A stretch of DNA of 31,756 nucleotides. Source: a candidate division WOR-3 bacterium. Its GTDB lineage: Bacteria; Hydrothermota; Tepidihabitantia; Tepidihabitantales; Tepidihabitantaceae. Location of the stretch: the NCBI GenBank assembly GCA_965648905.1, contig CBFGIT010000029.1:1-31756 (forward strand), in the 5' to 3' direction. The notes beneath the pieces are model-generated. The model did not search any database, had not been told where the DNA came from, and was given only the letters and a program-made list of their open reading frames with translations. Positions within the stretch are counted from its first letter, which is position 1. Each line of letters starts with the position of its first letter. The position numbers and the translations under genes were made by a program. Shown here piece by piece: positions 3,522 to 10,556 of the stretch.

Positions 3522-4901
3522 CTATTCTACGACCAGCACCTTGCGCACGACGGCCTGGTTGCCGAGACGGATGCGGAGGAAGTAGGTGCCAGCAGTGCTT
3601 GACGCTGGACGCCAGACCCCGGACGCCGGACGGGCGACGATGCGGCCAGAGGCGTCCGCGACTTCGCAGACGGCCGACTGCGGCAGCCCGGCGATGCGAA
3701 CAACCTCGCTGCGCCGCGCGACCGATGGCAGTACGGTTACCCGCTCCAGCGCGACCCTGGCCCGCTCCTCAACCCCGACCGGCAGCCACTCCCAGATGAG
3801 AGTGCGGTCCTGGTAGTCGCAGATGAGTTCGTCCCGGCCATCTGAGTTGATGTCGTGGAGCGTGGCTCGTTCACCGCCGCTGTCGGTCTGCCAGAAACAC
3901 TCGTATCGGTTGCTGCCGGTGCAGCGATACAGCCTGACGTAAACGCCGTTGGTTACCATGAACTCGAGGACAGAGTCGCCATCGATGTCCCCAACGGCAA
4001 CTGACCAAGCGTCCCAACTCCCGCCCTGTATCGAGTCGGCCCAGACGACTTCTGGCGAGCCAGCACACGGCCACTCTACCACGGCAACCTTGAAGAGGTT
4101 CTGTCCACGCGCGAGAAAAGGAACTAGGAGTTCGTTTCTACCGTCGCGATCGAGGTCCGGCATAGCGGCGAGTGCATAGCAACGAGAGACGTCGCTGTCC
4201 AGAATCCGCACGGTGTCTTTGAACTCAATCGAGTCATCCCCCACCGCCTCAAAAAACGCGATGCACCCGCCGGCGCGTACCGCGATCTCAGGCAGGCCGT
4301 TTCGGTCCAGGTCTTGAGTCTGGACAGCGACGTAGCCGTCACTGGGCGGGGGAACGTGGTATCGGTACGCGTACTGGTTATCGCCCACGCACTCGAAGAC
4401 GCAGATACCAACGCTCTCCCAGAACATCACGAGATCCCGTGCCGAATCGGCGTCAATGTCGGCGATAGCAGGATAGAAATGCTCGGACTGGCAGAGACCC
4501 GCACCCCAGACGCTATCTGTCGGCAGCGAGAACGAGTCAGGGCTTTCGAACACCAATAAGCCGTGTAGCACCAGATCGGTCAGCCCGTCCCCGTCAGCAT
4601 CACCGATTCCCTCAGGGCAAACCGTATTGGCCGGGGCCAGCCAGAAGGTGTCGAACTGGTTGTTGCCGATGTGCTCAAACGCGCACGCTGCCCAGCTATC
4701 AGGACCCACGTAGACACTCGCATAGAACTCGCGCTGGCCGTCGCGGTCAGCATCTGCACAGGGCACGGAGAGGTACGGCCGGCAGAACAGGTTGGTGACG
4801 ACCGCCATGCCCCAGGAATCGTGGTCAGCATCTTGAGTAGCTGACCCCACAGGAAGACCGGGCATGAGCGCGGCGGTGCTCAGCAACCAGATAAGCGCCA
4901 T
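3522..4901 (-). CDS. Secreted FG-GAP/VCBS repeat protein with T9SS-like CTD
   Basis: Repeated DxDxDG Ca-binding motifs (DADRDG, DADGDG, DLDRNG, DIDGDS, DINSDG); signal peptide from ATG 4901; ends GVEE...ASGRIV...GTYFLR..VVRKVLVVE. Confidence 0.85.
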   Translation of the reverse strand: MALIWLLSTAALMPGLPVGSATQDADHDSWGMAVVTNLFCRPYLSVPCADADRDGQREFYASVYVGPDSWAACAFEHIGNNQFDTFWLAPANTVCPEGIGDADGDGLTDLVLHGLLVFESPDSFSLPTDSVWGAGLCQSEHFYPAIADIDADSARDLVMFWESVGICVFECVGDNQYAYRYHVPPPSDGYVAVQTQDLDRNGLPEIAVRAGGCIAFFEAVGDDSIEFKDTVRILDSDVSRCYALAAMPDLDRDGRNELLVPFLARGQNLFKVAVVEWPCAGSPEVVWADSIQGGSWDAWSVAVGDIDGDSVLEFMVTNGVYVRLYRCTGSNRYECFWQTDSGGERATLHDINSDGRDELICDYQDRTLIWEWLPVGVEERARVALERVTVLPSVARRSEVVRIAGLPQSAVCEVADASGRIVARPASGVWRPASSTAGTYFLRIRLGNQAVVRKVLVVE

Positions 4902-4908
4902 TCGCGAG

Positions 4909-4937
4909 AGTCTAGTGATTGCACGAACACGTGTCAA
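4909..4937 (-). promoter_or_regulatory. sigma70-type promoter giving a probably leaderless mRNA
   Basis: TTGACA-17-TAGACT on the minus strand, 7 nt before ATG 4901, no SD. Confidence 0.6.
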
Positions 4938-5070: not shown

Positions 5071-5648
5071 ATGAAGCGACAGTTTGCCGCATACGTCCTG
5101 TGCCTACTAGCGCTGGCCGGCACAGGTCATCTCGCACAGAGCCAGGCAAGGTGGATAGTTGGACCTGCCAGTTCCTTCGCTTCTGGCGACTCGGTGGCCT
5201 TGGCCCGCAACAATGGCTGGGCAGTCGTCAGGAGGTCGTGGGTATCGCCCGGTGGCCGCGTTCACGTAGCATACTCGAAGAGGACCGGCAATCCGATCAA
5301 GTGGAAAGTCTTCACCAAGCACACCAGCAACTACGGACGGAGTTGGGCGGCCCCAATGCAGGTTTCAGGGCATCGCTACGATGCCCGGGACGCGGTGATC
5401 GCGTTTCTTCGGGACACGATTGCGTTGGTGAGCGGGGACGCTACCCATTTAGGCAATCATGTTGTCAATAGCACGCGACTTCGACTTCTGCCGTGCGGGC
5501 ATGTCCGCGCAGGCCTGAGGGTAATCGCGGACGCTACCCATTTGTAACTTGTGTTGTCGATATGACGCCGTGGTCGTGAGGCGTGAGGCGAAGCCGGCTT
5601 GACCCACCCGAGTTCCGCAGCGTGAAGAAGGCGGCGTTGATGAGATAG
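5071..5648 (+). pseudogene. Internally deleted secreted Asp-box/CTD protein gene
   Basis: AAGGAG RBS, ATG 5071, signal peptide and an Asp-box-like TSNYGRSW. Protein-like sequence breaks at the GGGGACGCTACCCATTT motif (5434). A CTD-like tail RLDPPEFRSVKKAALMR* remains at 5595-5648 in another frame. Confidence 0.65.
5434..5543 (+). repeat. GGGGACGCTACCCATTT REP-like motif, two direct copies
   Basis: 15-bp identical direct repeat at 5436-5450 and 5529-5543; a 16/17 identical copy at 26154-26170. Confidence 0.7.
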
Positions 5649-5692
5649 CCGGCAGTAGACGGAAGACAGTGGACAGCGTACAGGATACAGGG

Positions 5693-5730
5693 CAGGGCGG
5701 CGAGAAGAAACTCGCCGCCCTGTTCTTGTT
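5693..5730 (+). terminator. Intrinsic terminator
   Basis: 12-bp stem CAGGGCGGCGAG/CTCGCCGCCCTG, 6-nt loop, then TTCTTGTT. Confidence 0.75.
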
Positions 5731-5784
5731 CGAATGGGGCCCACGGCTATGCCAGAAATGGCCGGCCTCTGACCAGAGAGTTCC

Positions 5785-6029
5785 TCCTGCGGCTTGCGGC
5801 GCGGATTGGAGGGCGGCTTGCCGAGCGACGCCCGAAGCGGCTTGGTAAGCGACGCCCGAAGCGACTCAGGCTGCGCACCCGAGAGCGCAGTGCCGAGCCG
5901 CAAGGAGAGCCGAAAGGGCTGCGCCTCGGGTCGCGGCAGTCACCGGGGTTTGGGCCACGCTGGCCTGAGCCGCGGCCCAAGCCGCAGGGAAAGCCGCGCC
6001 GAGAGCGCTTCAGGGTTCGCTCCGGGTAG
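5785..6029. repeat. Degenerate 12-bp tandem array (consensus about nnnAGCsnnnnn), left part; continues at 7313-7355
   Basis: Units such as CCGAGCGACGCC, CGAAGCGGCTTG, GTAAGCGACGCC, CGAAGCGACTCA, GAGAGCGCAGTG, CCGAGCCGCAAG, CTGAGCCGCGGC, CCAAGCCGCAGG, GAAAGCCGCGCC, GAGAGCGCTTCA in unbroken phase. Confidence 0.75.
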
Positions 6030-6107
6030 ATACTGATGAAGAGCCTCCTCGAGTTTGAAGGTATGATTGAAGTGAAAAGTCCTTCAAACTGTCAAAGGAG
6101 GCAACCA

Positions 6108-7124
6108 ATGCTACACGTAGGACTAGATCTACACAAGCGGTTCTCGACCACGGCGACGATGGACGAGAACGGCAACATTCTGCACGAGGGCAAGCTGTAC
6201 CACGACGACCGTGGCCGGCTGACTGAGTTCTTCGGCAAGCTGGCAGGCAGGGCGGCAGTGACGCTTGAGGCCACGCGCAACTGGTACTGGCTGTACGAGC
6301 TGCTGGAAGAGCAAGGCGTCGAGGTGAAACTGGCTCACGCCCGTAAGGTCCGGCTGATTGCCGAAGCCAAGCTCACGAACGACAGGGTCGATCCCAGGAC
6401 CCTGGCAACGTTGGAACGCATCGGCTTCCTGCCGGAAGCCTACATCCCGCCGCGGGAGGTGCGTGACAGCCGCGAGTTCCTGCGCTACCGGCTGACCCTG
6501 GTGCGGCTCCGAACCGGGCTGAAGAACAGGGTCCATGCGCTCTTGGACAAGCTGGGCATATTCCACCCGTTCGCCGACCTGTTCTGCCCTGCCGGCCGGA
6601 AGTTCCTCGGTCAGCTCAAGCTCCGGCCGGTGTATCAGGAAGAACTGACCAACTACCTGGCGCTGGTCGAGGAGATCGAGCGCCGCATCGCCGCGGCGAC
6701 CAAGGCGATCAAGCAGCAGCTCAGACCTGACGCTCGGGCCGAGTTGCTGATGACGATACCGGGCATCGGGCATCTGACCGCCTACCTGCTCCTGGCCGAG
6801 ATCGGCGACATCAAGCGGTTTCCGAGTGCCGCCAAGCTGTGTGGTTACAGCGGGATTGTGCCGACGGTCAGGCAGAGTGCTGGCCACTGTCAGCACGGTC
6901 ACATCACCCGGGAGGGCAACCGATACATCCGCTGGGCACTGACCGAGTCGGCCTGCAAGGCGCCGAGTAAGGACTACGCACTGGGCAGTTTCTACCGGCG
7001 ACTGGCAACCAGACGTGGGCCGCTGAAGGCCCGGGTGGCGGTAGCGAGGAAACTACTGGTGGCGGTCTGGCATGTACTGACGTATGGAGAACCGTACAAG
7101 GTCACTGCAATCCCGAAAGTCTGA
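6108..7124 (+). CDS. IS110-family DEDD recombinase/transposase
   Basis: HVGLDLHK, LEAT and NDRVD (RuvC-like DEDD); LMTIPGIG and GYSGIVPTVRQSAG (Tnp domain with catalytic Ser); AGGAGG RBS before ATG 6108. Confidence 0.95.
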   Translation: MLHVGLDLHKRFSTTATMDENGNILHEGKLYHDDRGRLTEFFGKLAGRAAVTLEATRNWYWLYELLEEQGVEVKLAHARKVRLIAEAKLTNDRVDPRTLATLERIGFLPEAYIPPREVRDSREFLRYRLTLVRLRTGLKNRVHALLDKLGIFHPFADLFCPAGRKFLGQLKLRPVYQEELTNYLALVEEIERRIAAATKAIKQQLRPDARAELLMTIPGIGHLTAYLLLAEIGDIKRFPSAAKLCGYSGIVPTVRQSAGHCQHGHITREGNRYIRWALTESACKAPSKDYALGSFYRRLATRRGPLKARVAVARKLLVAVWHVLTYGEPYKVTAIPKV

Positions 7125-7297
7125 GCAAGCCCGGCGGGAACGCTGGCCAGGTCAAAGGGCCGAGGGTTAGAATGGGAAGCTCAGACTCGGATAGCCGTAC
7201 GTGTCACGCGGAGGACGAATAGAAGCTTGAGACGAACATCAGACGGTAACAGACCAAACCGGACCAGGAGACCTATCGAACCCCAAACTTGACACGG
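7118..7297 (+). ncRNA. Putative bridge/seek RNA of the IS1111-group element
   Basis: 9-bp stem AGTCTGAGC/GCTCAGACT (7118-7126/7179-7187) encloses an internal loop and an inner GGCC/GGCC stem; segments match the target (GGGAAC, GGGT) and donor junction (ATAGAAG, CATCAG). Confidence 0.7.
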
Positions 7298-7541
7298 GGC
7301 TCTTCATAGAAGCGGTTCCCTGAGCCGTATAGGGAACCGTTCCCCCTGGGGGTTCTGAATACCGGCCCATCTTCGGCTAACTTCATGATACTTTGAGGGT
7401 TGAGTCTCGAAACCGGCCAAGTCGTCATTATACAGCTTCGCCAAGTGGCCTTTGTGTCGCTATCTCTGAAACATGCGAGGACTTCAGCCAGGTTCGTGCC
7501 CAAGCAGTTGTCTTGCCGGGTGCCTGGGGCTCTGTGCTGCG

Positions 7542-10500
7542 CTAGTCCTGGATGACCAGTTTCTGCGTGGCAGCAGTGCCAGCCGAGGTCAGGCTGACAA
7601 AGTAGACCCCGGGCGCAAGCGAACAGAGGTCGAGCGCGAATGATGAAGTCCGAAGGTCGAATGACGAGTGAAGGACAAGTCGGCCGGCGGCGTCGAAGAT
7701 ACTGAGGAGAGCAGAGGACGAGTTCAGATTGCAGAATGCAGATTGCACATTGCAGAACAGAACAACCGAGCCGCGTGCCGGGTTGGGGCTGACCTGGAAT
7801 GCGACACGCCGGTTATCGGGCAATACCCGTTCCTCGGCGAATCCCGGAATCGGCACGTCGGTCGTGAACTTGATTGCCCGGCCCGAGTAGATGGGCGCGG
7901 CTGCGGCGTGGTAAGAATTGCGGTAGAGCAGGGTCATGCCGATAGTGTTGGTCGAGTCCTGGAGTCCGACCGTGCTCGTGGTCATGCTTCGGTTGTACCG
8001 GTACTGGAACATGAACTCGTTGTTGCCGTCGGCCGCGGCCAGGGTTGAGTCGTAGAGGATGAACTGGAACTTGTCGAACTGGGTCGAGCGTGCCCGATAG
8101 TGAACCGAGTCCCATTCGACGATGAGGCGGTGGCCGGCTGAGTCAAGGGCGTAGAGGACACCGCCGCCATAAGGCGGGTACAGGTCGTCCCAGTTGACCG
8201 CGATGAGCGGCGTGCCGACCTGAGCCGGAAGGCGGCGGCTGGCATAGCCGGTGAACGTGGTTGTGCCGGGCGCAACCCAGCCGTTGGCGCAGACCGAGAG
8301 TCGGGTGTACCGCTGGCCGTAGTAGTAGAACGGGCCGAAGGTCTCGGGCAGGTCGAGCGTGACCGTGGTATTGTCGCCGAGGGTGAGGCGCGTGCCTGAG
8401 CCGCGGAGCTCGACCCAGGAGAAGTCCGGATGTTCGGCGTAGGCGGTGTCGGTGTCGTCAAATGCCCAGTAGAGCGCCGGTACGCGCGGCCCGTCCGGCA
8501 CCGGGTCGCGGTTCGTGGTGATGCCGACGACGATGCCGAACCCAAACCGCCACTGCCGGCCCGGTGCCGAGACGATGAGGCTGCAGGGGATTTCGGTCTG
8601 GGGCACCATGTTGCCGGCGCGAACGACGAATGGGTTGGAGCTGTTGCTGGTGGCGGTTCCCGGGCCGGCATCGGGTAGAAGGGCGAGCGAGTCCTCGACC
8701 GACAGACGCGGGTCGAGCGAGCGGAGCGTTGCCCGCAGGTTCAGGGCCGTGCCCTGGCCGGAGTTGTATAAGGTGACGCGCAGGGCCGCGGCTTCGTTCG
8801 GGTCGAAGCGCTGGTTGCCGTTGCCCTCAAGCTCGACAATCGAGGTGTCGGTGAGCTCGAGTGCAGGCAGGCCGACCGGAACGCGAAAACGTGAGTCCCA
8901 GACATGCGGGCCCGAGGCGCAGCGCAGGTTCATGAGCAAGTTGCGGCCCTCAGGACACGTCGGGCCGACGCGGCAGCGAAACCCGGTGCCCGGCGTCAGC
9001 AGCGAGTCGTCGGGCAGGACCGTGCCGAGCAGGCACGTGGAGTCGAGCACCAGAGCCAGCGTGTCAAGCGTTGAGAGGGTAGCGGTGACCGAGCCGGCCG
9101 CGGAGTCGCCCCAGTTCCTGACCCAGACCGGCAGGTCAAAGGTTTCGCCCGGAGAAATGCAGCTATCGCCGTTGCCGCCGGGCGCCGGGTCGGAGATGAC
9201 ATACCGGTGATACGCGCAGAACGGGCCACCCTGGATTTCTAGGCGACAGGAACCAGAGTAAGGCCTGAGGTTCGGGCCGGTGACCGTGACCTGCATCAGG
9301 CCGGGTCGGTTGGAGCTGATATCAAGCTCGGCCCGACCTGATGAGTCGGTCGTGTCGATGACGTAGACCGCGGTGTCCATCCAGCAGCAGACGATTGCCC
9401 CTGCAACCGGTTGCCCCTCAGTCAGCACCGCGACCGGAAAGAGCGGCCCGCCGAGCCGGTACAGGGAGTCATGGGTAACGGTAATGGTGCGCGGCGGCCT
9501 GGTCCAGAGCGCAAGGTCAGGGTCGCCAAGCAGGCACCACTCGACGTATCGGTCACGCCGGTGGTAGAGCGAGTCGACTCGGAACCGGGCGCGGAGCGTG
9601 GCCGCGCCGAGCGAACCTGCGCCTTCGCTGAAGACTGCATCGAAGAAGCCACGATAGACCGCGCTGCGATACTGGGACAGCTCGTATCCGCTCATGCTTG
9701 TACCGAAGAACGCGACCATGCCGCCGAGCCCGGCCTCAGAGCCGTAGCGGAGACAGGCGTTGCCGAGCATCACTTCAGAAGGGGCGAGCGTGATGGTTTC
9801 GCAGGTGGCGGAGATGACAATCGGCATCCGGCCGCGGTTCTGCCAGGTTGCATCCGGGAAGAACGTGTAGTAGGGCATCGACCAGACCCCGCCGGCAACG
9901 CCACGATAGGTGATGTAGGCCCGACCGTCGTTCAGCGCGGTGACGACCCGGGTCGTGCTGCCGCTCGGGCCAAAGCTGTCAATCCGCGTGTAGCCGGCAG
10001 TACGCCACAGTTGGTGGGCGTGGCGCGAGTCGGTGAAGTAGTACGGGTCAGGGTTGAGCGAGTCATCTTCGGCGACGATGGTTGTGCCCTGACGATACCA
10101 GATGGTGTCGGTAACCGGTGGCGTGCGCTCGTAGGCCAGGATTTTGGCGACCATTGCGCGGCACTCGGAGACGTTCTCTGCCGGCAGACGTCCGACCGCA
10201 ATTTCCATCCGGTAGTCACCCTGCATGTTGCCGTAGTAGCAGTCGTCGTCGTTGTTGTTGCCGGGAAGGTGACGGGGTGCGCAACAGAGCAGGAGGTTCT
10301 CGGGTCGGGTGGGCCAGTTGGCCCAGGCGTTGCGCACGTAGTTCTGGACCTGGGTTGGCGTGGTGCCGGTAACCGAGAGCGGCACGACCCGGGCAGACAT
10401 GCCTTTGCTGGTCTTCCATTCGGCGAGCGGCTGAACCACGGACACGTACTCGTCGGCAGCGATGATGAGATAGCGGCAGCCCGTGCCCAACTGAGCCGGA

Positions 10501-10556
10501 AGTCTGGCTCCGGCTGAGAGCAGAGCCAAAATGACCAGACCGGGAGTCGGGCGCAC
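7542..10556 (-). CDS. Secreted C25 (gingipain-like) peptidase-domain protein with Ig-like domains and T9SS-like CTD
   Basis: YLIIAAD..LAEWK..KG, DCYYG...EIAVGRLP, SATC, LLGDP motifs; GNGD..ISPGE Ig modules; SPNP...GVYFV...KLVIQD C-terminus. Confidence 0.85.
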   Translation of the reverse strand: MRPTPGLVILALLSAGARLPAQLGTGCRYLIIAADEYVSVVQPLAEWKTSKGMSARVVPLSVTGTTPTQVQNYVRNAWANWPTRPENLLLCCAPRHLPGNNNDDDCYYGNMQGDYRMEIAVGRLPAENVSECRAMVAKILAYERTPPVTDTIWYRQGTTIVAEDDSLNPDPYYFTDSRHAHQLWRTAGYTRIDSFGPSGSTTRVVTALNDGRAYITYRGVAGGVWSMPYYTFFPDATWQNRGRMPIVISATCETITLAPSEVMLGNACLRYGSEAGLGGMVAFFGTSMSGYELSQYRSAVYRGFFDAVFSEGAGSLGAATLRARFRVDSLYHRRDRYVEWCLLGDPDLALWTRPPRTITVTHDSLYRLGGPLFPVAVLTEGQPVAGAIVCCWMDTAVYVIDTTDSSGRAELDISSNRPGLMQVTVTGPNLRPYSGSCRLEIQGGPFCAYHRYVISDPAPGGNGDSCISPGETFDLPVWVRNWGDSAAGSVTATLSTLDTLALVLDSTCLLGTVLPDDSLLTPGTGFRCRVGPTCPEGRNLLMNLRCASGPHVWDSRFRVPVGLPALELTDTSIVELEGNGNQRFDPNEAAALRVTLYNSGQGTALNLRATLRSLDPRLSVEDSLALLPDAGPGTATSNSSNPFVVRAGNMVPQTEIPCSLIVSAPGRQWRFGFGIVVGITTNRDPVPDGPRVPALYWAFDDTDTAYAEHPDFSWVELRGSGTRLTLGDNTTVTLDLPETFGPFYYYGQRYTRLSVCANGWVAPGTTTFTGYASRRLPAQVGTPLIAVNWDDLYPPYGGGVLYALDSAGHRLIVEWDSVHYRARSTQFDKFQFILYDSTLAAADGNNEFMFQYRYNRSMTTSTVGLQDSTNTIGMTLLYRNSYHAAAAPIYSGRAIKFTTDVPIPGFAEERVLPDNRRVAFQVSPNPARGSVVLFCNVQSAFCNLNSSSALLSIFDAAGRLVLHSSFDLRTSSFALDLCSLAPGVYFVSLTSAGTAATQKLVIQD

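Follow-up and report, generated by a model that had tools for sequence, protein, structure and literature searches.

The insertion sequence family considered here has already been described, and thousands of its orthologues are known. According to those parts of the literature that are drawn on throughout this text, elements of the IS1111 group are recognised by sub-terminal inverted repeats of 7–17 base pairs (bp) with short terminal extensions (PMC11208160), and by a longer non-coding region downstream of the recombinase gene (PMC11187229). In members with a 3' seekRNA the short seekRNAs, of 82–96 nucleotides (nt), predominate and carry the two target matches only, and the target halves on either side of the donor are of importance (Siddiquee et al. 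2024, PMC11187229); a junction promoter formed by the joined ends is described for the IS1111 family in the legend to Figure 6 of the same paper. In the bridge RNA of IS621 it is the 5' side of the loops that carries the bottom-strand guide (Durrant et al. 2024, PMC11208160). The stretch of DNA analysed here, referred to as the window, comprises 31,756 nt of contig CBFGIT010000029.1 from a candidate division WOR-3 bacterium (assembly GCA_965648905.1). At positions 6030–7312 of the window there is, very probably, an intact IS1111-group insertion sequence whose right end encodes a two-loop bridge RNA, as judged from sequence comparison. All features of the element lie on the plus strand.

The likeness to ISEc11, ISPa11, ISKpn4 and ISPst6, set by their published descriptions (PMC11187229), extends to the sub-terminal inverted repeats, a gene followed by the long non-coding region, the length of the recombinase (338 amino acids here, within the range of 330–350), the junction promoter from the joined ends, and a target in repeated DNA. 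The order of the guides is also the same, the top-strand match standing 5' of the bottom-strand match, which is the reverse of the IS110 type. Unlike these elements, the one described here has SA, not SG or TG, at the catalytic serine, and an extra U in its left-target guide. With the bridge RNA and recombinase of IS621 (PMC11208160; PDB 8WT6) it shares two internal loops, target first and donor second, a discontiguous right-donor pairing, and a C-terminal domain, the only domain whose likeness is detectable by sequence. It differs from IS621 in that the RNA is located in the right end downstream of the gene, whereas that of IS621 is in the left end; in addition, the two strands of each loop stand in the opposite order, AG takes the place of CT as the core, and the sub-terminal repeats are of 10 bp, compared with 2–3 bp.

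The element and its ends

The strongest result of this analysis is the placing of both ends and of the AG core from empty sites. The insertion sequence is complete and of 1283 bp; 6028–7310 is as valid a delimitation as 6030–7312, one AG being counted. Both ends are fixed to the base, because empty sites in the same genome show flanks overlapping by AG only: the left and right 30-base flanks adjoin with this 2-base overlap at four loci (C25, C23, C5 and C3), and two more repeat copies (C18 and C39) are also without the insertion sequence. The unoccupied copies read ...CCGGGTAG|CGGTTCCC... or, over a longer stretch, ...CTCCGGGTAG|CGGTTCCCTGAG.... When the filled site is compared with the four complete empty sites, AG constitutes the sole shared bases, with no further target duplication, and the insertion is site-specific. 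The left target half ends with the left copy of the core (6028–6029); the right copy (7311–7312) follows the right-end extension AGA, extension and core together occupying 7308–7312. In the right target half (7313–7339), CGGTTCCC provides the first arm of the hairpin CGGTTCCC-N11-GGGAACCG, which belongs to a multi-copy intergenic repeat.

Inside the left end, the terminal extension ATACTG (6030–6035), the right-donor half, whose geometry recurs in relatives, is followed by the sub-terminal repeat ATGAAGAGCC (6036–6045), the exact reverse complement of GGCTCTTCAT at 7298–7307. Between the 10-bp repeat and the end of the element there are thus 6 bp on the left and 5 bp on the right, in accordance with the first feature of the IS1111 group given above. 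The second is found as well: the non-coding ends measure 78 bp on the left (6030–6107) and 188 bp on the right (7125–7312), so that the long end is the one downstream of the gene. The original prediction had named an intact recombinase of the DEDD+Ser type, 10-bp sub-terminal repeats and AG at both junctions; all three were found, and every sequence feature that it named is present where it had been placed.

The recombinase gene and its relatives

The open reading frame of the recombinase (6108–7124, 338 amino acids) is preceded by AAAGGAGG. It matches the Pfam families PF01548 (DEDD_Tnp_IS110; 7.9e-17) and PF02371 (Transposase_20; 8.8e-24), and its C-terminal 140 residues align to the transposases of IS621 (E = 3.8e-08) and ISCro4 (E = 9.9e-08) in PDB, with Ser257 opposite the serine of the ESG motif of IS621. 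Residues D7, E54, D92 and S257 are invariant in all eight aligned proteins; D95 is aspartate in five of the eight, that of the window included. In the motif GIVPTVRQSA the serine is kept and the next residue is alanine, and the seven aligned relatives have SG in six cases and SS in one. The motif of the IS1111 group is given as G(L)-P----S(T)G, with SG, TG and occasionally TA noted (PMC11187229).

Upstream of the gene the left end can be folded into a 5' untranslated hairpin (6043–6102) in which GCCUCCU (6043–6049) pairs with the Shine-Dalgarno sequence AGGAGGC (6096–6102). This fold, which buries the Shine-Dalgarno sequence, has a minimum free energy of −26.3 kcal/mol (z = −3.6), and none of 200 shuffled sequences folds as well. 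The hairpin may keep read-through transcripts from being translated until the junction promoter forms.

Relatives of the recombinase were sought in several collections. A scan of a genome collection with the single protein yielded three relative loci, and within the phylum of the window's genome matches at E <=1e-30 were found in 28 of 272 genomes, its own included. From a metagenome scan 80 of 526 confirmed loci were kept, about 20 of them at 76–87% protein identity. Among annotated plasmid-borne matches ('IS110 family transposase') the best reaches about 41%. The annotated plasmid relatives are distant, but close relatives are common in metagenomes, and the lineage, which had been called poorly sampled, deserves that description only in part, given the relatives on those roughly 20 metagenome contigs. 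In nearly all complete relatives one end has a common geometry, the core dinucleotide (AG or TG), 5–6 bases and (T)ATGAAA..., and the opposite end reads ...TTTCAT(A), 3 bases and the core. Parts of the element are covered, in one DNA sequencing run, by contigs 95–99% alike, two of which continue into unlike sequence at 6024 and 7314, with left-hand GGGTAG and right-hand CG kept, and therefore derive from a near-identical element in another context; these contigs are of low depth and may or may not represent one copy. The closest genome-derived relative, L016 (genome G204; 66% identity), contains an in-frame TAG, its right end is CATGGAAG compared with the guide ATAGAAG, and its left-target guide mismatches the flank at −3. 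L016 is probably in decay.

The bridge RNA module

Immediately downstream of the gene lies an RNA module of 120 nt with two internal loops (7115–7235), the sole match in the window to the covariance model R1 (112.3 bits). Its beginning coincides with the region of the recombinase stop codon (7122–7124), and in the relatives GUCUGAGCAAGCCCG opens the conserved block at a distance of about 190 nt from the right end, independently of the position of the stop codon. R1 has 122 positions and 25 pairs and was made from alignment A2, which consists of 30 sequences with four helices drawn by eye. Run over 100 sources totalling 304 kb at E <=0.01, it gave 85 matches (81 distinct), that of the window among them, all situated just 3' of a recombinase gene with the exception of two partial extras. 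The claim that this is a complete IS1111 element with its bridge or seek RNA encoded downstream of the coding sequence, and with guides legible in the sequence, is supported. The two extras, at L055:2697-2761 and L076:2212-2321, are partial or solo second copies of the module directly downstream of a complete element, and they recall the extra copies of its small RNA reported for ISPpu9 (PMC12288879).

The fold of the RNA is observed as covariation among the relatives. In A2, 94.4% of the cells pair and 11 of 21 pairs are changed on both sides. Four of the five measures have observed values that none of 500 shuffles attains, and on the fifth, the count of further pair types, eight of 500 attain it. 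When the 3' partners are slid by one column, pairing falls to 40–44%. RNAalifold, applied to A2, independently recovers the same helices, with three of the five P4 pairs, and adds an invariant CCCG/UGGG helix. In alignment A3, composed of covariance-model matches and so fitted to the model, compensatory changes occur in 24 of 25 pairs, with 92.7% of the cells paired.

Each of the two internal loops is split by a hairpin. The target loop is closed by helices P1 and P1b and split by P2. P1 (7120–7126 with 7179–7185), the stem TCTGAGC/GCTCAGA by which the original prediction had bounded its loop, overlaps the stop codon, has four of its seven pairs changed on both sides in A2, and is recovered by RNAalifold. 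P1b (CCCG 7130–7133 with UGGG 7173–7176) is invariant in A2, and all four of its pairs are changed on both sides in A3. The hairpin P2 (7145–7161; GGCC 7145–7148 with GGCC 7158–7161) shows a change from C-G to U-A in 14 of the 30 sequences. The donor loop is closed by P4 (CUCGG 7186–7190 with UUGAG 7227–7231; three of five pairs changed on both sides in A2, five of five in A3) and split by the hairpin P3 (7202–7217; UGUCA 7202–7206 with GGACG 7213–7217; three of five in A2, four of five in A3). Between the two loops, the conserved AAUGGGAAG followed by the 3' strand of P1 (7171–7185) is structural and holds no guide: it is conserved whatever the target and pairs with CCCG. On the same grounds UGGGAAG (7172–7178) was ruled out as a left-target guide.

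In Rfam 15 no family matches 7115–7312 at E <=1, the matches elsewhere being noise. Folded as a single sequence, 7110–7312 has a minimum free energy no better than that of shuffled sequences (z = −1.29), and the same is true of the tail 7226–7312 (z = 0.24); because both folds lie within the range of shuffles, single-sequence folding is uninformative here.

Target guides

The original prediction had read four short guides in the right end, GGGAAC and GGGT for the target and ATAGAAG and CATCAG for the donor. In 2000 dinucleotide shuffles of the non-coding end a match of equal or greater length arose for ATAGAAG in 2.2%, for CATCAG in 8.6%, for GGGAAC in 58% and for GGGT in about 100% of cases, and for all four together in 0.15%. 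Short matches alone are therefore weak, and the support for the guides comes from the relatives, not from the single sequence. Each loop strand of 61 elements with plausible ends was compared with the flanks of the same element, and covariation of guides with DNA is observed: each of the four guides fits the DNA of its own element better than that of other elements, a result reached in none of 2000 permutations in each case.

The right-target guide, GCGGGAACGCU (7134–7144), lies on the 5' strand of the target loop and ends in CU opposite the core; its complement is the top strand of the core and right target. It scores 6.93/9 against its own target and 3.32 against those of other elements (56 unique pairs). 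When reverse-complemented, the 5' strand of loop 1 equals the core plus right flank in L077 (AGCGTCCCCAC versus AGCGTCCCCACA), and likewise in L074 (AGTTGAGCTC), L045 (AGTGTCCCC) and L100 (GCAACGACC). The left-target guide, AGGGUUAG (7163–7170), is the 3' strand of the same loop and is identical to the left target GGG-TAG, core included, with one extra U. Its scores are 6.21/8 for its own target and 3.34 for others (43 unique pairs), and the 3' strand of loop 1 equals the left flank plus core in L074 (GATGTCAAG), L088 (TTGAACATG), L119 (TTAAGTCTG) and L081 (TCCGGAAG). GGGAAC (7136–7141) and GGGT (7164–7167) were thus rightly taken for parts of target guides, although both had been read too short.

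The extra U is found in every member of the window's clade, in which left-target guides of the form (A/G)GG-U-NAG face targets of the form (A/G)GG-NAG. N and the first base co-vary between guide and target (GGGUAAG/GGGAAG, GGGUUAG/GGGTAG, AGGUAAG/AGGAAG). Skipping the U gives the better register in eight of nine unique guide-target pairs of the clade and an equal one in the ninth; beyond the clade, 26 of 27 are matched better by the contiguous register.

In other genomes the related elements L061 and L077 are inserted at GGGTAG|CGTCCC; their right-target guide, GGGGACGCU, differs from that of the window, in the part facing the target, only at 7139, where the window has A and they have G. Both occupy GGGTAG|CGTCCCC sites, and the window copy occupies GGGTAG|CGGTTCCC despite the presence in its genome of ten GGGTAG|CGTCCC motifs, each one mismatch from the guide prediction and all unoccupied. 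Natural insertions, the present one among them, tolerate a one-base offset beside the core on the right-target side, and guides and sites offset by one base occur also at L065, L085, L012 and L070. The extra G of the occupied site (CGG after the core) predates the insertion, because the six other repeat copies compared all carry it. It is conceivable, if somewhat doubtful, that discontinuous pairing with DNA is built into the bridge RNAs of this clade, combining natural single-base retargeting with tolerance of a bulge.

Donor guides

The left-donor guide, ATAGAAG (7219–7225), is identical to the last seven bases of the right end, core included. Across clades it tracks the right-end terminus, taking the forms ATAGAAG, ATAGATG, ATGGATG, ATAGGTG, AGAGATG, AAAGAAG and ATAGCAGG, with the short forms AGAAG, AGATG, GGATG, AGGTG, GAGATG, AAGAAG and AGCAGG; here the earlier reading stands unchanged. 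It scores 6.90/7 against its own terminus and 5.52 against those of other elements (20 unique pairs).

In the donor loop the 5' strand supplies the right-donor guide, CCGUA (7195–7199), which pairs with positions +6, +4, +3 and +2 of the left end and has a mismatch at +5. In a count by position, the 5' strand of loop 2 was set against the left end in 21 unique elements with an AG core. Watson-Crick pairs were found in 17 at +2 (with 2 wobble pairs and three pair types), 17 at +3 (no wobble, two types), 13 at +4 (no wobble, three types), 16 at +5 (no wobble, a single type) and 16 at +6, which faces loop position r7 (3 wobble, three types). In other clades the strand reads AACAU for ATGTT, GAUAUCA for TGATATC and UUAUCA for TGATAA. 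In the fixed register the scores are 4.49/7 for an element's own end and 3.22 for the ends of others. This guide is the least secure of the four; the covariation with the element's own ends is of moderate strength for it and strong for the left-donor guide.

Putative junction promoter and proposed cycle

A −35-like box, TTGACA (7289–7294), occupies a fixed place in the 30 aligned relatives. ATACT of the left end together with the G of the core gives a −10-like GATACT, which after circularisation would stand 17 nt from TTGACA across the junction. The cycle proposed here takes its mechanism from the published work on IS621 and IS1111, and its sequence correlates were what was examined. The element would excise as a circle, the junction of which, ...CATAGA-AG-ATACTG..., would create the TTGACA-17-GATACT promoter. 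The recombinase and the RNA would then align the circle junction with a GGG(T)AG|CG..TTCCC site, the target-binding loop lying between P1/P1b and P2 and the loop for donor binding, which has the same layout, between P4 and P3, with the 5' strand of the latter (7195–7199) predicted to pair with the left end; strand exchange would take place at AG. We infer that the RNA would be produced and bound by the protein, and that this copy would be active and, as the original prediction had it, potentially reprogrammable.

Alternative explanations

Several points weigh against the reading of 6030–7312 as an intact element guided by a two-loop RNA. The 1283-bp element is present once in its own 3.0-Mb assembly, a search of the 60 contigs having found no second copy. 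A promoter and terminator scan found no promoter-like site upstream of the RNA module and nothing useful for the RNA; no listed sequencing run has this stretch as RNA, and in the one RNA run examined nothing was placed on it. The ends of the relatives were placed by repeat geometry, empty sites having been used for the window element only, and the fitting of A3 to its model favours the structure. The right-donor guide is weak, with four of five positions matched here and the smallest gap of the four guides between own and foreign DNA. The right-target guide of the window predicts AG|CGTTCCC and the actual site is AG|CGGTTCCC, with one extra G, so that on the occupied site it forms nine pairs with one G bulged or, contiguously, seven Watson-Crick pairs and one wobble pair out of ten; the scores in this copy are imperfect, 6/9 for the right-target and 5/8 for the left-target guide. 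Finally, the relatives share ancestry, and the permutation counts therefore overstate independence; the signal of the target guides is nevertheless robust, given the many different targets across clades.

Some of these points would suit an inactive relic, a copy inserted once at a near-cognate site and no longer mobile. The single copy in the assembly, the ten near-matching motifs left unoccupied, the imperfect fit of guide and occupied site, and the alanine after Ser257, where six of the eight proteins have glycine, are all compatible with it. We consider such a relic unlikely in view of the open reading frame with its catalytic residues intact, the perfect sub-terminal repeats, the full set of intact RNA helices, and the near-identical copies in another context in one DNA run.

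Less probable still is an element in which only the first loop guides, as part of a short seekRNA of roughly 80 nt, with the ends identified by means of the sub-terminal repeats and the adjoining target halves, and the second loop conserved for protein binding or as DNA. The seven types of right-end terminus with which the 7-nt left-donor guide changes are difficult to reconcile with it, as are the three pair types at each of the right-donor positions r3, r5 and r7 and the compensatory changes in P3 and P4, expected for conservation of RNA rather than DNA. What speaks for it, beside the weak right-donor match, is the published predominance of the 82–96-nt seekRNAs with target matches only and the importance of the target halves flanking the donor (PMC11187229).

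The preferred reading, with guides in both loops, departs from the original prediction in its right-donor guide. CATCAG (7237–7242), proposed for this role, was rejected because it lies outside the P4-closed donor loop, 6 nt beyond P4, and is without co-variation. Opposite the variable left-end position +6, its column forms a Watson-Crick pair in only three of 16 scored unique relatives, compared with the 16 Watson-Crick and 3 wobble pairs in 21 given by r7 of the loop strand 7195–7199; TCAGA recurs in clade members with left ends CTTATG, CTCATG or ATCATG, and TCAG in those with ATACTT and ACAATC. That the full earlier guide map is right, CATCAG included, with a donor module split between ATAGAAG and a downstream segment, is very improbable: CATCAG is an exact 6-mer complement of left-end +4 to +9, and the longest exact complement is about equal for the 25 nt past P4 and the 10-nt loop (means 3.87 and 3.89 in 45 elements), but that measure fails to separate the two candidates, the fixed-register count by position does separate them, P4 has compensatory support, and the fold of the tail is not above chance.

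The target site, its repeats and the flanking genes

The insertion site lies within a mosaic of intergenic repeats, present in at least 10 copies, 74–95% alike, on ten contigs. The window from 5427 to 7480, with the insertion sequence removed, is composed of repeat modules, one at about 5427–5725 and another at about 5549/5594–7480, which are combined differently on at least 12 contigs of the genome with 74–99% identity; Rfam contains no family for these modules. The ten copies of ...TTGACAACATGATTGCC(C/T)AAATGGGTAG|CGTCCCC... are located at 5435–5447 and 26155 of the window, both on the minus strand, and at eight places elsewhere in the genome. Each of them is at the edge of a conserved stretch of at least 60 nt, the far side being unlike. 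In relatives with TGTCCC targets TTGACA also occurs about 25 nt upstream. Short repeats surround other elements as well. In the right flank of L045 a tandem repeat of the target motif GGGGAAG|TGTCCCCAATAAACCC stands about 48 nt downstream of the insertion, so that in the host of L045 the target belongs to a short tandem unit. The elements of clade B (L064–L071 and L075) are inserted in arrays of an 8–9-nt unit, (N)CACCAAG, some with a one-base offset between guide and flank.

The genes on either side, 3522–4937 and 7542–10556, both on the minus strand, encode large, secreted-looking proteins, both of which finish, as inspection of the translations shows, with a similar C-terminal segment; one of the two proteins contains repeated D-x-D-x-DG motifs. 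A sub-threshold match to archaeal C/D-box sRNA families (small RNA; E = 0.33) was obtained at 7636–7686, inside the 3' end of a minus-strand open reading frame of 1004 amino acids, and is covered by a repeat (about 7602–7794) with three further occurrences in the window. A second such match, also sub-threshold, is at L002:628-675 (E = 0.0017). Both are probably due to chance.

Significance

The gain offered by this locus is incremental: one well-delimited pair of an IS1111-type recombinase and its bridge RNA, with ends set to the base and a map of all four guides, the pairs of this kind being raw material for programmable DNA insertion. For the specialist it holds evidence for an obligatory bulged U in one guide, and natural insertions at sites offset by one base, which bear on off-target rules. 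It also provides a donor loop that is a simple internal loop, with its strand order mirrored in relation to IS621.

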